NCBI GenBank assembly: GCA_041664165.1
Contig: JBAYLH010000001.1
Coordinates: 73,469-137,468 of the forward strand
Source: Candidatus Buchananbacteria bacterium
GTDB lineage: Bacteria; Patescibacteriota; Patescibacteriia; Buchananbacterales; UBA6539
Length of the DNA stretch: 64,000 nucleotides
Direction of reading: 5' to 3'
Shown here in pieces: positions 6,101-39,507 of this stretch. The number at the start of each line of letters is the position of its first letter. Position 1 is the stretch's first letter. The position numbers were made by a program, and so were the translations under genes. The notes beneath the pieces were generated by a model that saw nothing but the letters and a program-made list of their open reading frames with translations, was not told the DNA's origin and did not search any database.

Positions 6101-6177
6101 TCGGGGTATAGCGAAGTTGGCTATCGCGCATGCATGGGGTGCATGAGACCGCGGGTTCGAGTCCCGCTACCCCGACC
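6101..6177 (+). tRNA. tRNA-Pro (anticodon GGG), CCA encoded
   Basis: Hand-folded cloverleaf. The acceptor stem CGGGGTA/TACCCCG and the D arm GCGA-AGTTGGCTA-TCGC are present. The anticodon arm is CATGC-AT GGG GT-GCATG and the T arm is GCGGG-TTCGAGT-CCCGC. The discriminator is A, followed by CCA. Confidence 0.85.
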
Positions 6178-29847: not shown

Positions 29848-31443
29848 TTACAAACCCTTGTCTGTATTGATGTCGGGTGAACTGTTTTTAATTGAATCTT
29901 TGCTATACTCGGTAACGGCCGTAATTTGGCTGCCGGTTTTATAGTTAACAAAGAAAGCATCGGAAATATCATCTACTAAGGTAGTCGCCCAGCTGGCGCC
30001 GTAAAGAGCAGCGGCGATGTCAGCGGTGGTAACCCATCTCAAAGTGCCATCACCGGCAACGGCGTAAACTTTCGGATCCGTGTTGATTTTAACTAATTTT
30101 ACACCGGGCCGATAAGTCGCGTTGCCACCAATCAGGTACTTGGCTAAATCAGCGGCGCTAATGGTTTTAACGGTGGAAAAATCGCTATACCAAGTCTTGT
30201 AAGTTTTTTCATTCGGAAAAACATAGCGTTTGCCATCTTGGCCAAGATAATAGACTGCCTTGCAGGGATCATTAACACCAGCGTTGGCAGCACAAGCTAA
30301 CTTGACTAAATCGCCGCCGGCCGCAATTTTTTCGCCAATGACCGCAAACTTAGTGAAATGAGCGGTTGTAGCCGTGATTTTATTGCCAGCGGAGTCAATA
30401 GTACCGCCCAAACTGAGCCATTTCTTGGTCGCTTCGTCCCAATAGTTGACCGCTAAAGTCGATTCATTAATCCCTTTAATATTTTCGTCGGAGTAGGTAA
30501 AAGTCAAAGTCAACAACTTGTCAAAGGTGGTTATTGCCTGTCCGCCGACCGTGGCCGAAAAGTCATAAACTTGATTGCCAACCACTCCTTTGGCGCTTTC
30601 CGGAGCAGTATAACTGGCAGTTGGCGTAATCGTTATTTCCCCGCTGCCGCTGAAAGCGCCGCTTGGGATTGTAATCGCCGCTTTATTATCCGTTAAAGAA
30701 ACTAAACCCCCTTCGGTGCCGGTAATGGCTTTGGTAATCTTAGCTGCCGGCGCGATTAATTCGATGGTGTCGCTAACCGCTGCCGATTCACCGCCGCCGG
30801 TTGACCGAAACTTAACATAGACAGTCTTAACGCCCAAGCCGGAGACTAAAGTCCAGCTGGCTGAAGTTGCATAATTTTGCCAGCTGCCGGCATCGGAAAA
30901 ATCAGCTTTATTGGCAATTAACATAGTAGCGGCGTTTGTCGCTGATAAAGTAAGCGTGATACCGGTACTTTCCGTCTGAATGTTGCCGCTATCAATTGCT
31001 ACCGCAGCATTGGTAGGCGTAACTACTACCGGTGCCGCACCGCCGCCACCTCCACCGCCGCCACCGCTGCCCGGAGCACTACACTTGTCGCCGCTAATAG
31101 TTAAAGTAACATCTTGACTTGATCCCGAAGTTATACTGATTGACGAAGCCGTGCCGGAACAGCCATCTTGGGCAATTTCCGGTGAAACTTTCATTCGCCA
31201 GCCGTCGGCTGCTTGAAAGGTAATATTTGAATCACTGGCCAAACTAATAGTCAAAGTGGAATCTGCATTAATAATAATTGACTCGGCTAAACTGTCGTTG
31301 GTAATCGTTAAATTTTTACCATTAGGCAGTAAAAGATTAGTTTCGGCATTAAACGTCAGTGTCGCCGCGGCAGCCAAACCTGGGATGCCGACAGCAAGAG
31401 AAAATATTACCAACCCGACTCCTATAAAAAATATTTTCCGCAT
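29848..31443 (-). CDS. Secreted cell-surface protein with Gly-rich linker
   Basis: Signal peptide, a GSGGGGGGGGGAAP linker, and Thr/Ser-rich beta-rich segments. Confidence 0.6.
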   Translation of the reverse strand: MRKIFFIGVGLVIFSLAVGIPGLAAAATLTFNAETNLLLPNGKNLTITNDSLAESIIINADSTLTISLASDSNITFQAADGWRMKVSPEIAQDGCSGTASSISITSGSSQDVTLTISGDKCSAPGSGGGGGGGGGAAPVVVTPTNAAVAIDSGNIQTESTGITLTLSATNAATMLIANKADFSDAGSWQNYATSASWTLVSGLGVKTVYVKFRSTGGGESAAVSDTIELIAPAAKITKAITGTEGGLVSLTDNKAAITIPSGAFSGSGEITITPTASYTAPESAKGVVGNQVYDFSATVGGQAITTFDKLLTLTFTYSDENIKGINESTLAVNYWDEATKKWLSLGGTIDSAGNKITATTAHFTKFAVIGEKIAAGGDLVKLACAANAGVNDPCKAVYYLGQDGKRYVFPNEKTYKTWYSDFSTVKTISAADLAKYLIGGNATYRPGVKLVKINTDPKVYAVAGDGTLRWVTTADIAAALYGASWATTLVDDISDAFFVNYKTGSQITAVTEYSKDSIKNSSPDINTDKGL

Positions 31444-31479
31444 AACATTATAGTTTAAGGGTAATTAATTTTCTCTTTT

Positions 31480-32028
31480 TTAATTACAGCGACCAGCCGA
31501 GCAAACTAAGCTAGGGGTGGCAACATCAATATAACAATTATAATAAGCACCGTTGCTGGCAGCTAATTCTAAACAGCCATTAGTAACCGGAGCGGCGCTG
31601 CCGTCGTTAATATCGCCGATACTGACTGTTGAAGTCGAGCTAGTCCGATCCCGAGAAAATATTCCCGGCGTAGTTGTCGGAGCAGAACTCGTTGATAAAT
31701 CAAAAATTGTCCCGCCGGCCTTTATATAGCTGCCGACTGTCAGACTGCCTCCGGCGCTAACGGCACCCTGAGTGTAAAGCCCGCCGGTCGATGAAGCGTT
31801 GCCGATAACCGTCAAATCATTACTGGCATACAAAGAAGTCGTGGTCGCGCTGCCGCCAACTGATAAATTGCCGCTGGTAAGAGTGATGTCGCCCGAACCG
31901 ACAGTAATGCTACTGCCGATAGTCGTTGCCGCGTAAACAACCGTCATAACAAAAAGCGATGCGATCAGCACCACCATTACACTTTTAAGAAACGATGACC
32001 ATTTTGAAAATTGTTTCTTAATCTCCAT
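31480..32028 (-). CDS. Secreted Ser/Thr/Gly-rich protein with Cys-rich C-terminus
   Basis: N-terminal signal anchor, and a GCLELAASNGAYYNCYIDVATPSLVCSAGRCN tail. Confidence 0.5.
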   Translation of the reverse strand: MEIKKQFSKWSSFLKSVMVVLIASLFVMTVVYAATTIGSSITVGSGDITLTSGNLSVGGSATTTSLYASNDLTVIGNASSTGGLYTQGAVSAGGSLTVGSYIKAGGTIFDLSTSSAPTTTPGIFSRDRTSSTSTVSIGDINDGSAAPVTNGCLELAASNGAYYNCYIDVATPSLVCSAGRCN

Positions 32029-32178: not shown

Positions 32179-32718
32179 TTAACTATTTTTGACGGTTAAA
32201 GCCTTTAATTGCCTAAAATTTGCCAAAAACTTAATTCCTTCATAAGCCCCAACAAAGATGCCGGTATAGAATAAATCCCCCAACAAAGTGGCTCGGAAAA
32301 AAGGAATCGCCGCGATGAAACAGTCAACTAAGCCAAGCAAATCTTTGGTGTACCAGGAGGCAAACTGCCAAACTGCAAAATTAGTGGCGATAAAAAACAA
32401 AACCGAGGCAAAAATACTGGCTGCCATCACCACTTCAACATTCTTATGTTTTTTGATTAAGCTGGCAACTAAGCCCGTAATAACGTAGCTGCCATAAACT
32501 ACCAGCATCAAAGGCAGCGAATAAAAACCGATGAACAGATCGCCTAAAGCCATGGCGGCAATCGGCAAAAAAACGGCATAGCTCCGACCCAAATAAAAAC
32601 CGGCAAAAATAGCAATGGCGGCAATCGGCGCAAAGTTGCCAAGATGAGGTAAAATTCGACAAGCCACCCCCAGGGCGATCAAAATGATTGAAATAATGAT
32701 TTTTGTTGTTTTGTCCAT
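32179..32718 (-). CDS. Small polytopic membrane protein (ECF S-component-like / BtuM-like candidate cobalamin transporter)
   Basis: 179 aa with 5-6 TM helices. It is the last gene of an operon with DUF4430-like and alpha/alpha-toroid proteins behind a candidate B12 riboswitch. Confidence 0.5.
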   Translation of the reverse strand: MDKTTKIIISIILIALGVACRILPHLGNFAPIAAIAIFAGFYLGRSYAVFLPIAAMALGDLFIGFYSLPLMLVVYGSYVITGLVASLIKKHKNVEVVMAASIFASVLFFIATNFAVWQFASWYTKDLLGLVDCFIAAIPFFRATLLGDLFYTGIFVGAYEGIKFLANFRQLKALTVKNS

Positions 32719-32724
32719 ACAATT

Positions 32725-33186
32725 TTAATGTTTTATCAAATTAAATTGGTTTGAAACATATTTCCACTCGACAATATCTCCCGCTTTTAATTGATAGTTG
32801 CTGGCACCGATCTCCGCATAAACATTATTGACCCAATAATGCCAAAACCGATTAGTCTTATTATTGTTAGCAATTTTATTGATTGATTCGACTAAAACCC
32901 CGAGTTCGCCGCCATAGTCCTTGTAGCTAAACTCCAGCTTATTTTCGGCGGTAATTTTTTTTAGCAACTCAAAAACCGAACTATTCTCGGCTAAAGCGAT
33001 GCTATTGAAAGTCTGGACTTCACCGTTACCGAAATCAAGCATTAAATTGACCTTAATTTCTTGGTTTGCCTGGTTTTTTGGCTGTTTATTGATCCAGCCA
33101 TCGGCCGGAGCCAAAACCTGCTGGCCAAAATAAAAACCGGCAAAAAAGATAGCCAGGGCTAATATAATTTTAGCAATCAGTTTCAT
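32725..33186 (-). CDS. DUF4430-like (transcobalamin C-terminal beta-domain-like) secreted protein
   Basis: Signal peptide. The C-terminal WHYWVNNVYAEIGASNYQLKAGDIVEWKY matches the DUF4430 W.Y.VN......G......L..GD.I.W.Y pattern. Confidence 0.6.
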   Translation of the reverse strand: MKLIAKIILALAIFFAGFYFGQQVLAPADGWINKQPKNQANQEIKVNLMLDFGNGEVQTFNSIALAENSSVFELLKKITAENKLEFSYKDYGGELGVLVESINKIANNNKTNRFWHYWVNNVYAEIGASNYQLKAGDIVEWKYVSNQFNLIKH

Positions 33187-33187
33187 C

Positions 33188-33694
33188 TTAGTTAGCTTTA
33201 ATTTTATTGCGACTTATTAATAATTTTACTGCAAAAAAGGCAAATAAGCAAACAATTATCCCGGCTAAAATTTCCGCCCAAAGCGGCAAACCCCAGACAT
33301 AAAGCGTCAGCGGGATCTTTACGCCCGTAGCCGCTGCTAATCCCCCGCTCGCCAAAGGCCGGGCCACGACCGAAAGATTAGTGCTAAATATCCCCGGCCG
33401 TTTCGGGTTAACGATAACTTTGATCAGCTGGCTGCCGTCGGGATCAAGCCGAAAATCAGCCGGACTGATTTTAATTTCCGAATTCAAGCCGTCGGGATAA
33501 ACCTGATACAGCGCCGGTTCGGAACTGACGTTAAAAATCAAAACTTCCGTTTCCGTTGAAAAATTTACCAGGGCTTTGAAACTAAGCTCATTCGGCTTGA
33601 CCCCGATGCCGATGGCTTGCGCCGACTGGCTGACCATCAAACTAAAAAACAGAGCTAGCGCTAATACTACAAATTTTTGGCAGAACCAAATCAT
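33188..33694 (-). CDS. Secreted protein with C-terminal TM anchor
   Basis: Signal peptide plus a C-terminal hydrophobic helix and basic tail. Confidence 0.5.
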   Translation of the reverse strand: MIWFCQKFVVLALALFFSLMVSQSAQAIGIGVKPNELSFKALVNFSTETEVLIFNVSSEPALYQVYPDGLNSEIKISPADFRLDPDGSQLIKVIVNPKRPGIFSTNLSVVARPLASGGLAAATGVKIPLTLYVWGLPLWAEILAGIIVCLFAFFAVKLLISRNKIKAN

Positions 33695-33707: not shown

Positions 33708-35570
33708 CTATTGAACCTGGGCCCAAAAAATTACTTCCCCGGTTTTGATGCCAAAACCCAGGTAATTGCCCGGCACTGCCAAAACGACATCCTGGTTTTT
33801 ACTTTCCTGGCTGGCCAAGTTTAAAAAGTAGCCGGACCATAGACTGCTGCCAATTGAAACATTTCGAGTAAAAACCGGGTCGCCGGTAACTGACGAAGTA
33901 ATTCTTAAGTTAACCGTACCCAAATTATTTAAAGTGATGGTTTGGCTGGCACTTTTTCCCGGCTGGACTTTGCCGAAATCAAGCTGGCTGGGAGTAACTT
34001 CAAAAATGATCGCTTCCCCGCCGATCCGGCCGCGGCCGCCCTGGTCAACTTCGACTTGCAAACCGACATTTTGCGAAACGCCGCTGCCAACCGAAATTAT
34101 TGCCTGATTGCTCCGGATGTAATTTTCCTTTTCCGCCGCTAAAGTGTAATAACCCGCCGGCAGCGCCATCACCACCTGGCCGGAAACGTCAGTTTGGTAT
34201 TCTTTATCGCCGCCGAAAACTATCGCGCCGGAAATCGGCTGCCAGTCCGACTGGCTGAAATATTTTACCGTTACGGTAATGCTTTCTCCCGGGTCAGTCT
34301 GATTTTTGCTGACAGTCAGGCTCAAGGGCTTATCGTAATCCGGATAAGCCGGAGCGTTGGTGTCGACATCATAATAAATTAAAACTTCGTCATTAGCCTG
34401 CAGATTATATTGCTCCAAACCGGAATCCGAAGGCTTATTATTTATCAAATACATCCAATAAGCCGGCGAACTGCCCGCCACGCCATTGATTGAATCAAGA
34501 AAAAAAGTGCCATAAGTCCGGTTGCCGGCAAAATTGTAATGACAAGAGACTGAACCGGCGACTAATAAATCATAAGCCGTCAAACCATTTAAAAACTTAT
34601 CGCAAATTGCCCCAGTCTGGCCTTCGATCCGAAAATGATATTGACCGGTTGGCTCTTGGCTGTCGCCGCTAGCACCAGCGTTAAAATGAGCTAAAGGCAA
34701 AGTCCGGCCCGATAAGGCCAAAACCGCATCCTGCGTCGCCAGCAAATTAGCGCCGGCATTAGTTTCGGTTCGGCCAAAAGAACCGTCGGCATTTTGCCGG
34801 GCGGAAATATAGCTAATCGGATTATTGTTTCCTTTGACCCATTGCTCCGGATTTTGACCGGCTTTGCGGATCGCCCAAACCACCCAGCTGGTTGAATTGG
34901 CATCGGATGAATTGTCAGCCGCCCAGCCAAAACCGCCGTCAGCATTTTGGGCTGAAGTTAAATAGCTTAAAGCATTAGTAACAGTCGAATTGCTGGCATT
35001 AACGCCGGCTTCCAGCAAAGCGATAGTAACGATAGCGGTGCTGTTGGTATCGCTGTCAATGCCGATGTTATAGCCCCAGCCGCCGTCAGGATTTTGTTTT
35101 GACAGCAAATAATTTTTGGCGCCGACAATTTCCGTACCCGTTAAACTCTGGCCGGCGGAAGATAAAGCTAAAATGCCAAAACTATCGTCCATCAGCATTT
35201 GACTGTCGCCAATTTGGCTATTTTGGTAAAAGCCTTTCAAGGCGGCAACGTAATCAATATTGCCGAAATCAGCCGGATTTTGACCCAGCGCCGAAACGGC
35301 CAAAATGGTTTTGGCGTAGTCTAACGGCGTATTGTCAGTTGATTTGAGGTAATCCGAAGCGATGTCGGAAGCGCCGGCCGCCACCAAAGCCATGGTCACC
35401 CAAGGCGCCTGGCTTGATTGTTTTAAATAAGTGATTGAATCTTGGCTGATGTCAGCCGAGACAATGGCCGGCTGAAAAACCGATAAAACCACGGCCGCAG
35501 CCAATAAAATAGTAATGATTTTGTTTTTCATATAAACAAAAAATCTCCCGTTTCGAGAGAGTTTGGTCAT
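33708..35570 (-). CDS. Secreted alpha/alpha-toroid (prenyltransferase/terpene-cyclase-like repeat) protein with C-terminal Ig-like domains
   Basis: Repeated segments of the type QNPDGGWGY, QNADGGFGW and QNADGSFG are typical of alpha/alpha-toroid repeats. An N-terminal signal peptide is present. Confidence 0.6.
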   Translation of the reverse strand: MTKLSRNGRFFVYMKNKIITILLAAAVVLSVFQPAIVSADISQDSITYLKQSSQAPWVTMALVAAGASDIASDYLKSTDNTPLDYAKTILAVSALGQNPADFGNIDYVAALKGFYQNSQIGDSQMLMDDSFGILALSSAGQSLTGTEIVGAKNYLLSKQNPDGGWGYNIGIDSDTNSTAIVTIALLEAGVNASNSTVTNALSYLTSAQNADGGFGWAADNSSDANSTSWVVWAIRKAGQNPEQWVKGNNNPISYISARQNADGSFGRTETNAGANLLATQDAVLALSGRTLPLAHFNAGASGDSQEPTGQYHFRIEGQTGAICDKFLNGLTAYDLLVAGSVSCHYNFAGNRTYGTFFLDSINGVAGSSPAYWMYLINNKPSDSGLEQYNLQANDEVLIYYDVDTNAPAYPDYDKPLSLTVSKNQTDPGESITVTVKYFSQSDWQPISGAIVFGGDKEYQTDVSGQVVMALPAGYYTLAAEKENYIRSNQAIISVGSGVSQNVGLQVEVDQGGRGRIGGEAIIFEVTPSQLDFGKVQPGKSASQTITLNNLGTVNLRITSSVTGDPVFTRNVSIGSSLWSGYFLNLASQESKNQDVVLAVPGNYLGFGIKTGEVIFWAQVQ

Positions 35571-35574
35571 AAAG

Positions 35575-35760
35575 TCTGCCTAAATTAGCGACTTTCACCT
35601 GCTCTTAGCCTCGAAGAGTTTAGTGAATTAATCAGTTTTGATTTTCGCGACCTGGCTTAGTCTTGGCACTAGCCTTGACTTCACAGTTGCGGGTCAGCGG
35701 AGGATTGGTTAGAAACAAGTAGTTTAGTAACATGTAACATGTTTCTTGTCACTTGTCTCT
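35575..35760 (-). promoter_or_regulatory. Candidate cobalamin riboswitch with terminator expression platform
   Basis: Minus sense ...CCAAUCCUCCGCUGACCCGCAACUGUGAAGUCAAGG... matches the conserved cobalamin-aptamer core (compare E. coli btuB GAAUCUGGAGCUGACGCGCAGCGGUAAGG). An AGCCAGG B12-box-like element lies downstream. A UCUCUCG-aaa-CGGGAGA hairpin with U6 sits immediately before the ATG. Confidence 0.45.
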
Positions 35761-35914
35761 AAATTTACCTCACTTCGGAAAATCAAAACTCTTTGTTAAA
35801 GGTAGCTTAAGTTTAGACGGCAAAAATTTTAATGTCAAATCTGACTGTGGATAAATAGAAAAACTCTAAATCCTAATACCTACCTTTGGTATGAAGGATT
35901 TCGTGCTTAGAATT

Positions 35915-36436
35915 TTAGTCCTCTATCCCTTTCCTGGCTAATAAACCGGCTTGATACGGGTGTTTAATTTCTTTCATTTCCGTCACGTAGTCGGCCAGCT
36001 TGATTAATTCTTTTGGTGCCCGGCGGCCGGTCAAAACTAATTCAACGCCAGCCGGCTTACTTTTCATCAGTTGAACTATTTCTTTAACCGAAATTAATTT
36101 AAAAAATAACGCCAAAAAAATTTCATCCAAAATCACCAAGTCAAACTTACCGGATTTGAATATCTTTTTTGCCCAATTCAGCGCTCTTTTGGCTAAAATT
36201 TTATCTTGAGCCGTGCCTTTTTGGTAAATATAAGTCTTTTGGCCAAAGCGCTTAATTGTTACTTCCGGTAATCGTTTTAAGCTATCCAGCTCACTATACT
36301 GCTGGGCTTTGAGAAACTGAACCAGATAAACCTGATAACCGGCGCCAATCGCCCGCAAAGCCAAGCCTAAAGCGGCCGTGGTTTTGCCCTTGCCGTCGCC
36401 GGTATAAATATGGATTTTGCCTAATTGAGATTTCAT
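35915..36436 (-). CDS. cobO: Cob(I)alamin adenosyltransferase (CobA/CobO/BtuR family)
   Basis: IHIYTGDGKGKTTAALGLALRAIGAGYQVYLVQFLK P-loop region. The 173-aa size fits. Confidence 0.85.
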   Translation of the reverse strand: MKSQLGKIHIYTGDGKGKTTAALGLALRAIGAGYQVYLVQFLKAQQYSELDSLKRLPEVTIKRFGQKTYIYQKGTAQDKILAKRALNWAKKIFKSGKFDLVILDEIFLALFFKLISVKEIVQLMKSKPAGVELVLTGRRAPKELIKLADYVTEMKEIKHPYQAGLLARKGIED

Positions 36437-37481: not shown

Positions 37482-37505
37482 ATGGTAATAACGCCGCCTA
37501 TTTGA
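37482..37505 (+). CDS. 7-codon uORF MVITPPI in the cassette leader
   Basis: ATGGTAATAACGCCGCCTATTTGA is preceded by GGAGAGGAGGAA 5 nt upstream. A Pro-Pro-Ile-stop ending makes it a potential stalling peptide. Confidence 0.35.
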   Translation: MVITPPI

Positions 37506-37566
37506 AGGTTTCAAAGAGAGAAAGACTGCGAGAGAGAGTGAGAGATTTAGAGAGAGGAGTACGGCT

Positions 37567-38439
37567 ATGTCGTACCAAAAGAAGCTCGAGAGAGCAGAAG
37601 CGATAGTCGCAGAACACAACGAAAGTGCCGGCGACGAAGGCAAAGTGGATTGGGAAAGTTTCCTGGCCAAGCTGAAAGGGACGGGCGGCACAACCGAGGC
37701 AACCTTAAACAGTTGCACCTGGGAAGACTTACAGGAATGCGGCCTGCCCAAGATGCTGGCGCGAGCGGTTGCCAAGGTTTTCCGCACTGAAGAAGGCGAG
37801 GGTAAGAAAACGCTGATCACGGTAAATAAGGCTCAAGCCATGCCCGTCGCGGAATTGGTCGAGCACTATGACCCGCGTGAGGCGGACAATCCCGTAGGCA
37901 AGCGGCTGGCCGAAATAACGAAAGACCAGCCCTGCATCGTCTTCAACGCGGACGGCACGGTCAACGTCGAAGCATCAACACAGCTCGTGAATGAGCTGCG
38001 GGACAATCTCCCAGCGAGGGAAACCTTCGTCGTTGATGGACGGCCCCAAAAGGTCTTTCGCATCGGCGAACGGCCGGATCAGGTGGCGGATGAAAACCCG
38101 CTTTGGCCGGGTCGAATGTTGCGACCGAACGGTGACTGCGACCAAACCAACCGGAGTTGGACTGGCGTTCCCGACGAAGTGCGTGCCTTGATCTACTTGG
38201 CGCGCACCGAGACGAACGAACTCAATTCCGTGGGTGTGATGGAAGCCAATGCGGTTTTGGATCTGGCAACCGGCGACAACGCCGCGGATAAGATTCGCCA
38301 GCACTTTCCTAAAGCGTCGGTCAAGTACGACGAGCTGAAAGCGATTGGCAACCTGCCATCGCTCAAGCTTGCCCGGACCGGTAGCAGCGGTAGTAGTGCA
38401 GCAAATCAGCCGTTTACCCACAGGAACCGGATATTCTAA
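37567..38439 (+). CDS. Hypothetical protein A of the GC-rich cassette (290 aa)
   Basis: GAGAGGAG SD upstream. The composition is acidic and GC-rich. No family recognised. Confidence 0.6.
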   Translation: MSYQKKLERAEAIVAEHNESAGDEGKVDWESFLAKLKGTGGTTEATLNSCTWEDLQECGLPKMLARAVAKVFRTEEGEGKKTLITVNKAQAMPVAELVEHYDPREADNPVGKRLAEITKDQPCIVFNADGTVNVEASTQLVNELRDNLPARETFVVDGRPQKVFRIGERPDQVADENPLWPGRMLRPNGDCDQTNRSWTGVPDEVRALIYLARTETNELNSVGVMEANAVLDLATGDNAADKIRQHFPKASVKYDELKAIGNLPSLKLARTGSSGSSAANQPFTHRNRIF

Positions 38440-38515
38440 GGGACGGCCACAACCGGCAGGGGGGGGACGAGTTTATTCTTCGTCCTCTCCCCTGCCAACT
38501 GAAAGGAGTTCTGCG

Positions 38516-39484
38516 ATGAACACAAACGACCCATTTACGGGGTTTAGTGGCAACCCCATAATGAGAATCAATGACTTGGCCTGTACGCTGAATATGCCGC
38601 GCCGACTACAACAACGATTCAGCGCGGATCAGCGGGAAGTTGCTCAAAGTTTGCCGGAACGCAATCGGCGAGCGGCTTTCGTAGTCGACGAATACCCGGC
38701 TTGTCCCGACAACTGGATGCGCGGTTCAGCCAAAGAAGCCAGCTACTTCGTGCCGGTTTTAGCCGATCACGGTCTGTGGCTAGATTTCAACGACAACAAA
38801 GATCACAGCCACCACGTGGCGGCAGTGATCTCGATTCAGGGAGTCAACGCCATCACCGGCCAGCCGACCAGCGACATGTACCTTGAGCAGTACCGAGACA
38901 ATTGCCCGGTACACCAGATTCCGTTCGGACACGAACGCTTCTGTGAGAAGTGCGGATACAAATGGGAAGCCCAGAACTATCTGGCCGGCAATGCTCAATC
39001 CAATGGCTACTTCTGGTTGGATGGCTTTCGGGCCAAGGACGGAGAGACCAGGCAGTTTTACTTCACCGAAGAGACACTCCGTGGAGTTGCGGCCCAAATC
39101 CTCGGCAGTGAGAGAGTTTTTGCCATCGGCATCGCCTTTTTCCTCAGCAAGGAACCAAAGCCGCAGCCAGTGGTAGCTGACGCCTACGGTTATTTAGGCG
39201 GCGGCGCGATGCGAGGCTTCCTTTCGTCCTTCAATGAAAGAACGTTGGGTATACCTGATTTCCAGGAACGGACTTTGGAAATTGCTGCCGGAGCCAAAAT
39301 CAATCAACGGATCCACCCTGATCCAGAGAGCCTGGATTTTTGGCAGCCTGAACCCGCCGGAGTAATCTACGTCAACTACGTGGATGCCGAAACCGGCTGG
39401 CAAATCGTTACTGCCGGTAAACGCGACCTCGAGGCTCAAGGCGAAGGGTTCATGAGTACTCTCAAGGTTGGCGTGCAAACCTAG
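38516..39484 (+). CDS. Hypothetical protein B of the GC-rich cassette (322 aa) with a CxxH...CxxC putative metal-binding motif
   Basis: AAAGGAG SD 7 nt before the ATG at 38516. The track's longer frame from 38345 lacks an RBS. The motif is CPVHQIPFGHERFCEKCG. Confidence 0.6.
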   Translation: MNTNDPFTGFSGNPIMRINDLACTLNMPRRLQQRFSADQREVAQSLPERNRRAAFVVDEYPACPDNWMRGSAKEASYFVPVLADHGLWLDFNDNKDHSHHVAAVISIQGVNAITGQPTSDMYLEQYRDNCPVHQIPFGHERFCEKCGYKWEAQNYLAGNAQSNGYFWLDGFRAKDGETRQFYFTEETLRGVAAQILGSERVFAIGIAFFLSKEPKPQPVVADAYGYLGGGAMRGFLSSFNERTLGIPDFQERTLEIAAGAKINQRIHPDPESLDFWQPEPAGVIYVNYVDAETGWQIVTAGKRDLEAQGEGFMSTLKVGVQT

Positions 39485-39507
39485 TAGAACCATCAGTATT
39501 AAATTAA

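Follow-up and report, generated by a model that had tools for sequence, protein, structure and literature searches.

The 383-nt minus-strand spacer between a CobA/CobO/BtuR adenosyltransferase gene (35915–36436) and the next gene (33708–35531) houses what is probably a transcriptional OFF riboswitch for cobalamin, most likely adenosylcobalamin, that would control a Patescibacteria B12-scavenging operon. This assessment draws on comparative sequence analysis and structure prediction. The spacer lies in a 64,000-nt stretch of DNA, here called the window, from Candidatus Buchananbacteria bacterium (assembly GCA_041664165.1, contig JBAYLH010000001.1, positions 73,469–137,468, forward strand). The complete aptamer (35593–35794, minus strand) is Cbl-IIb/RF01482-like, with helices P1/P3, P4, P5 and P6 followed by P13, and it carries a long hairpin in the L4 loop. 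By both descent and architecture it belongs to the known cobalamin riboswitch clan.

Homology and structure of the aptamer

A scan of the whole window against Rfam at gathering threshold returned no riboswitch, and the sole family reported was a tRNA (a gene at 6102–6175 (+), 62.8 bits). In a permissive scan of 35400–36000, the AdoCbl family (RF01482) scored 19.6 bits against a gathering threshold of 50 (E = 0.39), with the 5′ half misaligned, leaving the window below the gathering threshold of clan CL00101. That alignment, in which P1 starts at 35735 inside the L4 insertion and P4 is collapsed, is a forced misalignment; the true P1 5′ strand lies at 35778–35790. Other sub-threshold matches in the same AT-rich region were rejected as chance, namely the icaR 5′ UTR (RF02661; 35759–35830, 29.4 bits against a gathering threshold of 88, overlapping the promoter and P1) and matches to snoRNA and miRNA families. 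An Infernal/Rfam scan had been recommended by an earlier note, written from the sequence of this stretch, as the check on its proposal of a cobalamin riboswitch with an intrinsic-terminator expression platform. Read in isolation, its outcome would have counted as the refutation that the note had specified.

These scores are what would be expected if the leader were simply an AT-rich structured sequence unrelated to cobalamin riboswitches, resembling them by chance with no match at gathering threshold and a sub-threshold E of 0.39. We give this reading practically no weight, as it is already refuted by a covariance model match of 116 bits and by collinearity with leaders that do pass the Rfam threshold; covariation and the B12-related functions of the surrounding genes also speak against it. 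The Rfam miss is a false negative and not evidence of absence. The absence of a covariance-model match, which the earlier note named as grounds for refutation, is misleading when applied naively to Rfam alone.

The gene downstream of the leader encodes a 607-aa protein with hundreds of homologues, mostly in Patescibacteria, and 80 orthologous loci from species-representative genomes served as the comparison set. The leaders of the nearest orthologues (L001 and L002, 61–63% protein identity) are collinear with the window leader from promoter to start codon, save for ~57 extra bases in the window between GAGGU and CCUCC, inside L4. Both leaders pass the RF01482 threshold (63.3 bits for L001 and 56.2 bits for L002, gathering 50), and eleven further aptamers pass the Rfam threshold among the first 20 loci scanned, on either RF01482 or RF00174. 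The core columns are fully or nearly conserved in alignments of related leaders, the second check suggested in the earlier note, and its outcome bears the riboswitch proposal out. A covariance model (R1) was built from 13 related leaders with the window deliberately excluded. Run against the 64 kb, R1 gave a single match at 35593–35794 (−), with 116.2 bits and E = 2.5e-23, which spans the full model length (1–145) and contains 60 inserted nt where the consensus has 3 positions. R1 matched 75 aptamers in 82 sources. Matches occur at 73 of the 80 orthologous loci, and nearly every one of them falls in the leader that immediately precedes the gene. Over shared aptamer columns, the window is 70–77% identical to five relatives.

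Additional aptamers were observed at some of these loci. L008 (1409–1553) and L010 (1494–1638) each hold a second cobalamin riboswitch (RF01482, 65.4 and 57.1 bits), which precedes an extra gene of ~330 aa encoding a toroid-only (prenyltransferase-like) secreted protein. This extra gene sits between cobO and the 607-aa orthologue, so that two riboswitch-controlled B12-binder genes stand in tandem. At L020, a weaker aptamer (2506–2654 (−), R1 39 bits, L4 of 20 nt) with no Rfam report at gathering threshold is found upstream of the main riboswitch and on the other strand, an arrangement that suggests divergently transcribed riboswitch-controlled genes.

In the window, the aptamer is closed by P1/P3, whose 5′ strand AGUUUUGAUUUUC (35778–35790) forms 13 perfect and uninterrupted pairs with the 3′ strand GAAAAUCAAAACU (35634–35646). 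The adjoining junction CGAA (35774–35777) contains the GAA of the conserved GGAA/GGGAA of cobalamin aptamers, nearly invariant in our family alignments (A3 and A5) and aligned in orthologues to UGGAA of RF01482. P4 pairs GUGAGG (35768–35773) with CCUCC (35699–35703). P5/L5 (UGACCCGCA, 35688–35696) presents CCCG (35690–35693), the kissing-loop partner of L13. P6 (35652–35686) is a 35-nt stem composed of a near-invariant CUG/CAG, an internal loop UGA/AAGC and a short distal hairpin (AGUC..GGC UAGU GCC..GACU). The B12-box-like core AAGCCAGGUC (35649–35658) aligns to AAGUCAGGUC of RF01482, and its AAG.CAGG is invariant or nearly so in A3/A5. The regulatory hairpin P13/L13 (UUCAC..CUCUU CGAGGCU AAGAG..GUGAA, 35594–35627) places the L13 motif CGAGG at 35609–35613.

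The nucleotides that define the core of the clan are all present. For GAA in J3/4, CCGC(A/C)ACUG in J6/3 and AAG(U/C)CAGG in the B12 box, the window reads CGAA, CCCGCAACUGUGA and AAGCCAGGUC, in columns that are invariant or almost so in A3/A5 and match the RF01482 consensus. The two core segments on which the earlier note had relied are found on the minus strand as quoted, the longer one (AACCAAUCCUCCGCUGACCCGCAACUGUGAAGUCAAGG) at 35710–35673, with the CCGCUGACCCGCAACUGUGA core at 35700–35681, and the B12-box-like element (AAGCCAGG) at 35658–35651. The periphery follows the Cbl-IIb pattern, which lacks a P2 arm, has J1/3 either paired or mismatched and keeps P6 short (PMC7367189).

Covariation supports this structure. 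Across the 75 aligned aptamers, 89.9% of cells are paired, against 40–48% once partners are slid, and compensatory changes are seen at 37 of the 40 pairs. This alignment is fitted to R1; the count was therefore repeated on a plain MAFFT alignment of 13 sequences, which is not model-fitted and in which 87.6% of cells are paired (38–54% when slid) and 30 of 40 pairs change on both sides. All 13 pairs of P1/P3 covary in the family, as do the pairs of P4 and seven of the seven pairs in the distal stem of P6. The four-way junction P3-P4-P5-P6 closed by P1/P3 is thus present as a covarying unit, with R1 matched at full length and the covariation seen in both alignments. The tertiary contact is supported in the same manner. 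L5 (CCCG) of the window is complementary to CG(A)GG of L13, and across the family this L5-L13 kissing loop is 88% paired compared with 18–48% in slid controls. Its variable pair is CG in 26 aptamers, GC in 22, UA in 6 and GU in 2, with C-G in the window and U-A in L001 and L002. The P6 distal loop is itself a site of insertions, of 41–89 nt, in L002, L005, L011, L022, L046 and L067, separate from those in L4.

A hairpin within L4

L4 of the window (35704–35767) is 64 nt long, the longest among the 75 aligned aptamers; 61 of 74 related aptamers have exactly the usual 7-nt, UGAAAAU-like T-loop. In place of the 7-nt loop, the window has UAAA..AAU flanks around a 54-nt hairpin (35709–35762), which consists of a 12-bp stem (UUAGAGACAAGU/ACUUGUUUCUAA) and an inner hairpin and is absent from L001 and L002. 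L4 folds with a predicted −17.6 kcal/mol (z = −5.3 relative to shuffles). The two features by which the element departs from accepted family members, its Rfam score and its lack of a 7-nt L4, share this insertion as their one cause. The insertion also explains why the earlier note saw no 5′ part of the aptamer and proposed a possibly minimal variant spanning 35575–35760. That interval cuts off the 5′ strands of P1 and P4 and the CGAA between them (35768–35790), which do exist, displaced upstream by the 54-nt hairpin inside L4.

Eleven other aptamers carry unrelated inserts of 20–47 nt at the same L4 site. Each of these is a hairpin with about three loop nucleotides on either side, typically UGA-(hairpin)-AAU, a pattern to which the flanks of the window insertion (UAAAU ... 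CCAAU) are a poorer fit. One of them (L081), which has an unrelated 47-nt L4 and lies upstream of an orthologue of the same gene, was the single addition from a pattern-based metagenome search for more relatives with a long L4. With the window and L081 left out, L4 inserts occur in 10 of 72 aptamers (14%). The Rfam threshold is passed by only one of 11 insertion variants but by 22 of the 33 aptamers whose L4 is normal (Fisher p = 0.0013), and the sub-threshold score of the window is attributed to its L4 insertion.

Two trivial origins for the insert were considered and rejected. A mobile element or MITE is at odds with the lack of a second copy in the window (≤3 mismatches) and of any significant blastn-short match in the window and 81 loci. 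An assembly artefact is at odds with the identical leader in an independent assembly, GCA_041662345.1 (L082). Within the insert, a tandem direct repeat (ACAUGUU-ACAUGUU, 35723–35738 (−)) includes the palindrome AACAUGUU; the insert may have arisen by slippage or duplication, or may hold a binding site.

In class-II cobalamin riboswitches, the L4 T-loop is a highly conserved module that directs global folding by docking L6 (PMC6158498), and the recurrent interruption of L4 is for this reason the one unexpected aspect of the element. A 64-nt L4 could impair folding. If the insertion blocked both L4-L6 docking and ligand binding, the leader would be a decaying or disabled riboswitch, unresponsive to B12 and constitutively in one state. 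The organizing role of the T-loop in class-II folding (PMC6158498) favors such an outcome, as does the observation that the longest L4 of 75 aptamers belongs to the window while its nearest relatives, L001 and L002, have the normal 7 nt. We nonetheless consider it unlikely, as P1, P4, the J6/3 core, the B12 box, the kissing-loop complementarity, P13, the antiterminator and the terminator are all intact, and the leader is identical in a second assembly (L082). The insert, moreover, closes up as a compact hairpin, so that the two L4 flanks end up side by side, and eleven aptamers have unrelated hairpins at this site while the rest of the aptamer is conserved. We take the insertion site to be tolerant on the strength of these eleven aptamers, and favor the reading that the hairpin is probably accommodated as a peripheral extension of a still functional aptamer.

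A more speculative possibility, which we raise tentatively, is that the L4 hairpin marks a distinct class-II subtype, a "P4 extension" in which T-loop/L6 docking is remodeled or replaced, that recurs independently in ~1/7 of Patescibacteria B12-binder leaders and is invisible to Rfam. If this were true, the L4-extension subtype might change folding kinetics or corrinoid selectivity. A non-exhaustive search of the literature on L4 insertions, or on cobalamin riboswitches in Patescibacteria, found nothing relevant. In either case, one insertion in a loop regarded as highly conserved can drop a real riboswitch well below the Rfam threshold. L4-insertion variants were missed in about 10 of 11 cases in this sample, which implies that riboswitch censuses of the CPR are probably undercounts. 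The same variants provide natural test cases for how far the class-II L4 T-loop/L6 contact can be altered.

Expression platform and putative regulated operon

Transcription of the leader is predicted to start near 35803 (−), downstream of a promoter-like site (35810–35838) with TTGACA and TAAACT separated by a 17-nt spacer (10/12 in a consensus scan). The −35 TTGACA is conserved in L001, where the −10 is TAAAAT. Just past the cobO stop codon, a hairpin (AAAUCCU...AGGAUUU) followed by AGAGUUUUUCUAUUU (35853–35901 (−)) is, by its sequence, probably the cobO terminator. If so, the riboswitch transcript would be a separate unit from the promoter-like site at 35838–35810.

The aptamer is followed by a spacer hairpin, H2 (35572–35594, from MFE folds), and then by an intrinsic terminator, UCUCUCG-AAA-CGGGAGA plus U6 (35538–35560), with a predicted hairpin energy of −7.8 kcal/mol. 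The position of H2 is occupied by a hairpin of different sequence in L001, L002, L007, L009 and L010. The terminator hairpin had been quoted in the earlier note and was recovered at 35560–35544 (−), with U6 at 35543–35538, in agreement with a terminator scan. Its form, CUCCCUCGAA..GGGAGAU5-8, is conserved in many orthologues, and in 48 of 61 related leaders a simple terminator search detected a hairpin followed by at least five U residues.

A second pairing is available to the 5′ half of this terminator. The antiterminator 3′ strand ACC-AAA-CUCU-CUCGAA (35552–35567) pairs with segments of P13/L13, namely GGU (35597–35599) with ACC (35565–35567), AGAG (35602–35605) with CUCU (35558–35561) and UUCGAG (35610–35615) with CUCGAA (35552–35557). 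In fold predictions from nearest-neighbor energies, which ignore ligand and tertiary contacts, the antiterminator is the MFE structure (−20.1 kcal/mol) when the transcript is folded only as far as the terminator loop. In the complete transcript, the P13 and terminator state (−23.2 kcal/mol) and a forced antiterminator (−20.7 kcal/mol) differ little in energy. In at least 20 of the 48 terminator-bearing leaders, the nascent-transcript MFE joins L13 to the 5′ arm of the terminator, with matched changes on both sides (UUCGAG/CUCGAA, CCUAAGG/CUUAGG and, in L057, CGUGG/CCAUG). L13 is therefore complementary both to L5 and to the terminator 5′ arm, two mutually exclusive partners, and it is from its alternative pairing with the terminator arm that we infer an antiterminator and hence an OFF switch. 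Together with orthologous leaders that pass Rfam, the 116-bit match to R1 and the covariation, this terminator and antiterminator uphold the riboswitch and the expression platform that the earlier note had put forward.

The placement of the hairpin directly before the start codon, also asserted in the earlier note, depends on which start is used. From the ATG at 35531–35529, which agrees with homologues and with the NCBI-annotated 607-aa product, the U-tract ends 6 nt upstream and the assertion stands. From the start of the 620-aa open reading frame to which the note had referred (ATG 35570), it fails; that start is a mechanical ORF call upstream of the terminator and would make the terminator coding. 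The window product is 100% identical to the NCBI-annotated 607-aa protein P0001.

These elements can be assembled into a proposed mechanism, in which the ligand, as well as the direction of the switch, is what we infer. Transcription would begin near 35803 and produce the aptamer (35794–35593), in which the 13-bp P1/P3 closes the four-way junction of P4, P5 and P6, with P13 next. With B12 bound, L5 (CCCG) would kiss L13 (CG-GG) and lock P13, allowing the terminator UCUCUCG-AAA-CGGGAGA-U6 to form and halt the polymerase 6 nt before the AUG. Without B12, L13 and the P13 3′ strand (UUCGAG, AGAG and GGU) would instead take ACC..CUCU-CUCGAA as their partner, a segment that overlaps the 5′ arm and loop of the terminator. 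The resulting antiterminator would permit read-through and thereby expression of the transcobalamin-like surface binder, the DUF4430 protein and the DUF6580 membrane protein. An operon for B12 capture that is repressed by B12 follows the ordinary logic of cobalamin riboswitches.

The terminator hairpin may act on translation as well. A likely Shine-Dalgarno sequence, GGGAG (35545–35549), forms part of its 3′ arm and would be buried with it, which would probably add translational occlusion as a second layer. The distance from GGGAG to the AUG is 13 nt in the window, long for a Shine-Dalgarno sequence, and 7–10 nt in orthologues. One could propose on this basis that the switch is mainly translational, with the hairpin chiefly sequestering GGGAG and the U-tract incidental, given that GGGAG lies in the 3′ arm and precedes the AUG by 7–13 nt both in the window and in many orthologues, and that the simple search detected no terminator in 13 of 61 related leaders. 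The U-run of at least five after the hairpin in the other 48 of 61, and U6 in the window, are however a signature of intrinsic termination and make a mainly translational switch improbable. The two modes are also not exclusive, and the favored transcriptional OFF switch already includes Shine-Dalgarno sequestration.

The product of the regulated gene (33708–35531 (−)) is a secreted protein in which a transcobalamin-like alpha-toroid is combined with a DUF4430 beta domain and with Ig-like domains (Pfam). A profile search of its family against the PDB matched the transcobalamin beta domain (4e-6). In the AlphaFold model of the 607-aa product (mean pLDDT 86), the best 15 PDB matches are transcobalamin, intrinsic factor and haptocorrin (E 5e-11 to 8e-9), and the protein is thus predicted to have a transcobalamin-like fold. 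The rest of the putative operon (32179–33694 (−)), in abutting genes on the same strand, encodes a 168-aa Ig-like membrane-anchored protein, a 153-aa DUF4430 protein and a 179-aa DUF6580 membrane protein (Pfam). NCBIfam has no names for these 168-, 153- and 179-aa proteins; in distant homologues, DUF6580 is fused to ECF S-component domains. The aptamer is in this way associated with B12 genes, with a transcobalamin-like binder, a DUF4430 protein and a DUF6580 membrane protein all downstream. Upstream and outside the riboswitch transcript, the adenosyltransferase gene (35915–36436 (−)) is assigned by Pfam (4e-62) and by NCBIfam (cobA, above cutoff), and a class II (B12-dependent) ribonucleotide reductase gene is a neighbor as well (Pfam, NCBIfam).

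Other features of the neighborhood were recorded. Downstream of the operon, 29848–32028 (−) encodes 531- and 182-aa secreted or repetitive proteins without a convincing Pfam domain, the former with a glycine run. Between the 2-thiouracil desulfurase and class II ribonucleotide reductase genes, a 2-kb stretch (37500–39500) has 54–58% G+C amid genes of ~38–49% G+C and holds two ORFs of 290 and 379 aa on the plus strand, against the direction of the surrounding genes and with no Pfam match. Gene calls in the second assembly (L082) include the 290-aa ORF as well, and the stretch may be foreign DNA.

In Patescibacteria, the leader and its operon thus connect a sensor of B12 with a secreted protein that resembles transcobalamin. 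With adenosyltransferase and B12-dependent ribonucleotide reductase genes adjoining the capture system, the data support the view that reduced-genome Patescibacteria scavenge corrinoids through a dedicated, B12-repressed capture system.

Comparison with known cobalamin riboswitches and B12 carriers

The closest known system is the AdoCbl family RF01482 (clan CL00101), or Cbl-IIb. In the Cbl-IIb architecture of Johnson et al., P1/P3 is long and unbroken, the P2 arm is lacking and P6 is a short hairpin; Cbl-IIb binds adenosylcobalamin, and its structure was not available as of 2020 (PMC7367189). The window element shares with this group the long continuous P1/P3 without a P2 arm, the GAA junction, the P4 hairpin, a CCCG loop on P5, the core segments CCGCAACUGUGA and AAGCCAGGUC, the short P6 hairpin and the L5-L13 kissing loop as the regulatory contact. 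Its L13 (UCGAGGC) is nearly identical to the RF01482 consensus cuUCGAGGcAA, and the leaders of the nearest orthologues qualify as members under Rfam's own threshold. It differs from RF01482 in its 64-nt L4 with the 54-nt hairpin in place of the 7-nt T-loop (UGAAAAU), and in that P5 of its subfamily has only two Watson-Crick pairs and an A-G.

The classical family RF00174 (Cbl-I; E. coli btuB and T. tengcongensis) belongs to the same clan and has the same kissing-loop logic and position before B12-uptake genes, as well as the conserved core of GAA, L4-P4 region, GCCACUG-like J6/3 and B12 box. For L004, L011, L072, L079, L025 and others, the RF00174 score is above the RF01482 score. Unlike RF00174, the window element has neither a P2 arm nor the large P6 extension (P7-P11). 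The env8 Cbl-IIa riboswitch (PDB 4FRG; PMC6158498) is likewise a compact class-II aptamer in which the L4 T-loop docks L6 and L5-L13 forms the switch. Cbl-IIa, however, has a bulged J1/3 T-loop and prefers MeCbl or OH-Cbl (PMC6158498), whereas P1/P3 of the window is fully paired with no J1/3 bulge and its L4 is interrupted by a hairpin.

For the regulated protein, the best matches to the predicted 607-aa structure are transcobalamin, intrinsic factor and haptocorrin, two-domain B12 carriers built from an alpha/alpha toroid and a beta domain. The 607-aa protein shares only 12–16% sequence identity with these carriers, and its B12 binding is putative. It also differs from them in having a signal peptide and three additional C-terminal beta-sandwich or Ig-like domains.
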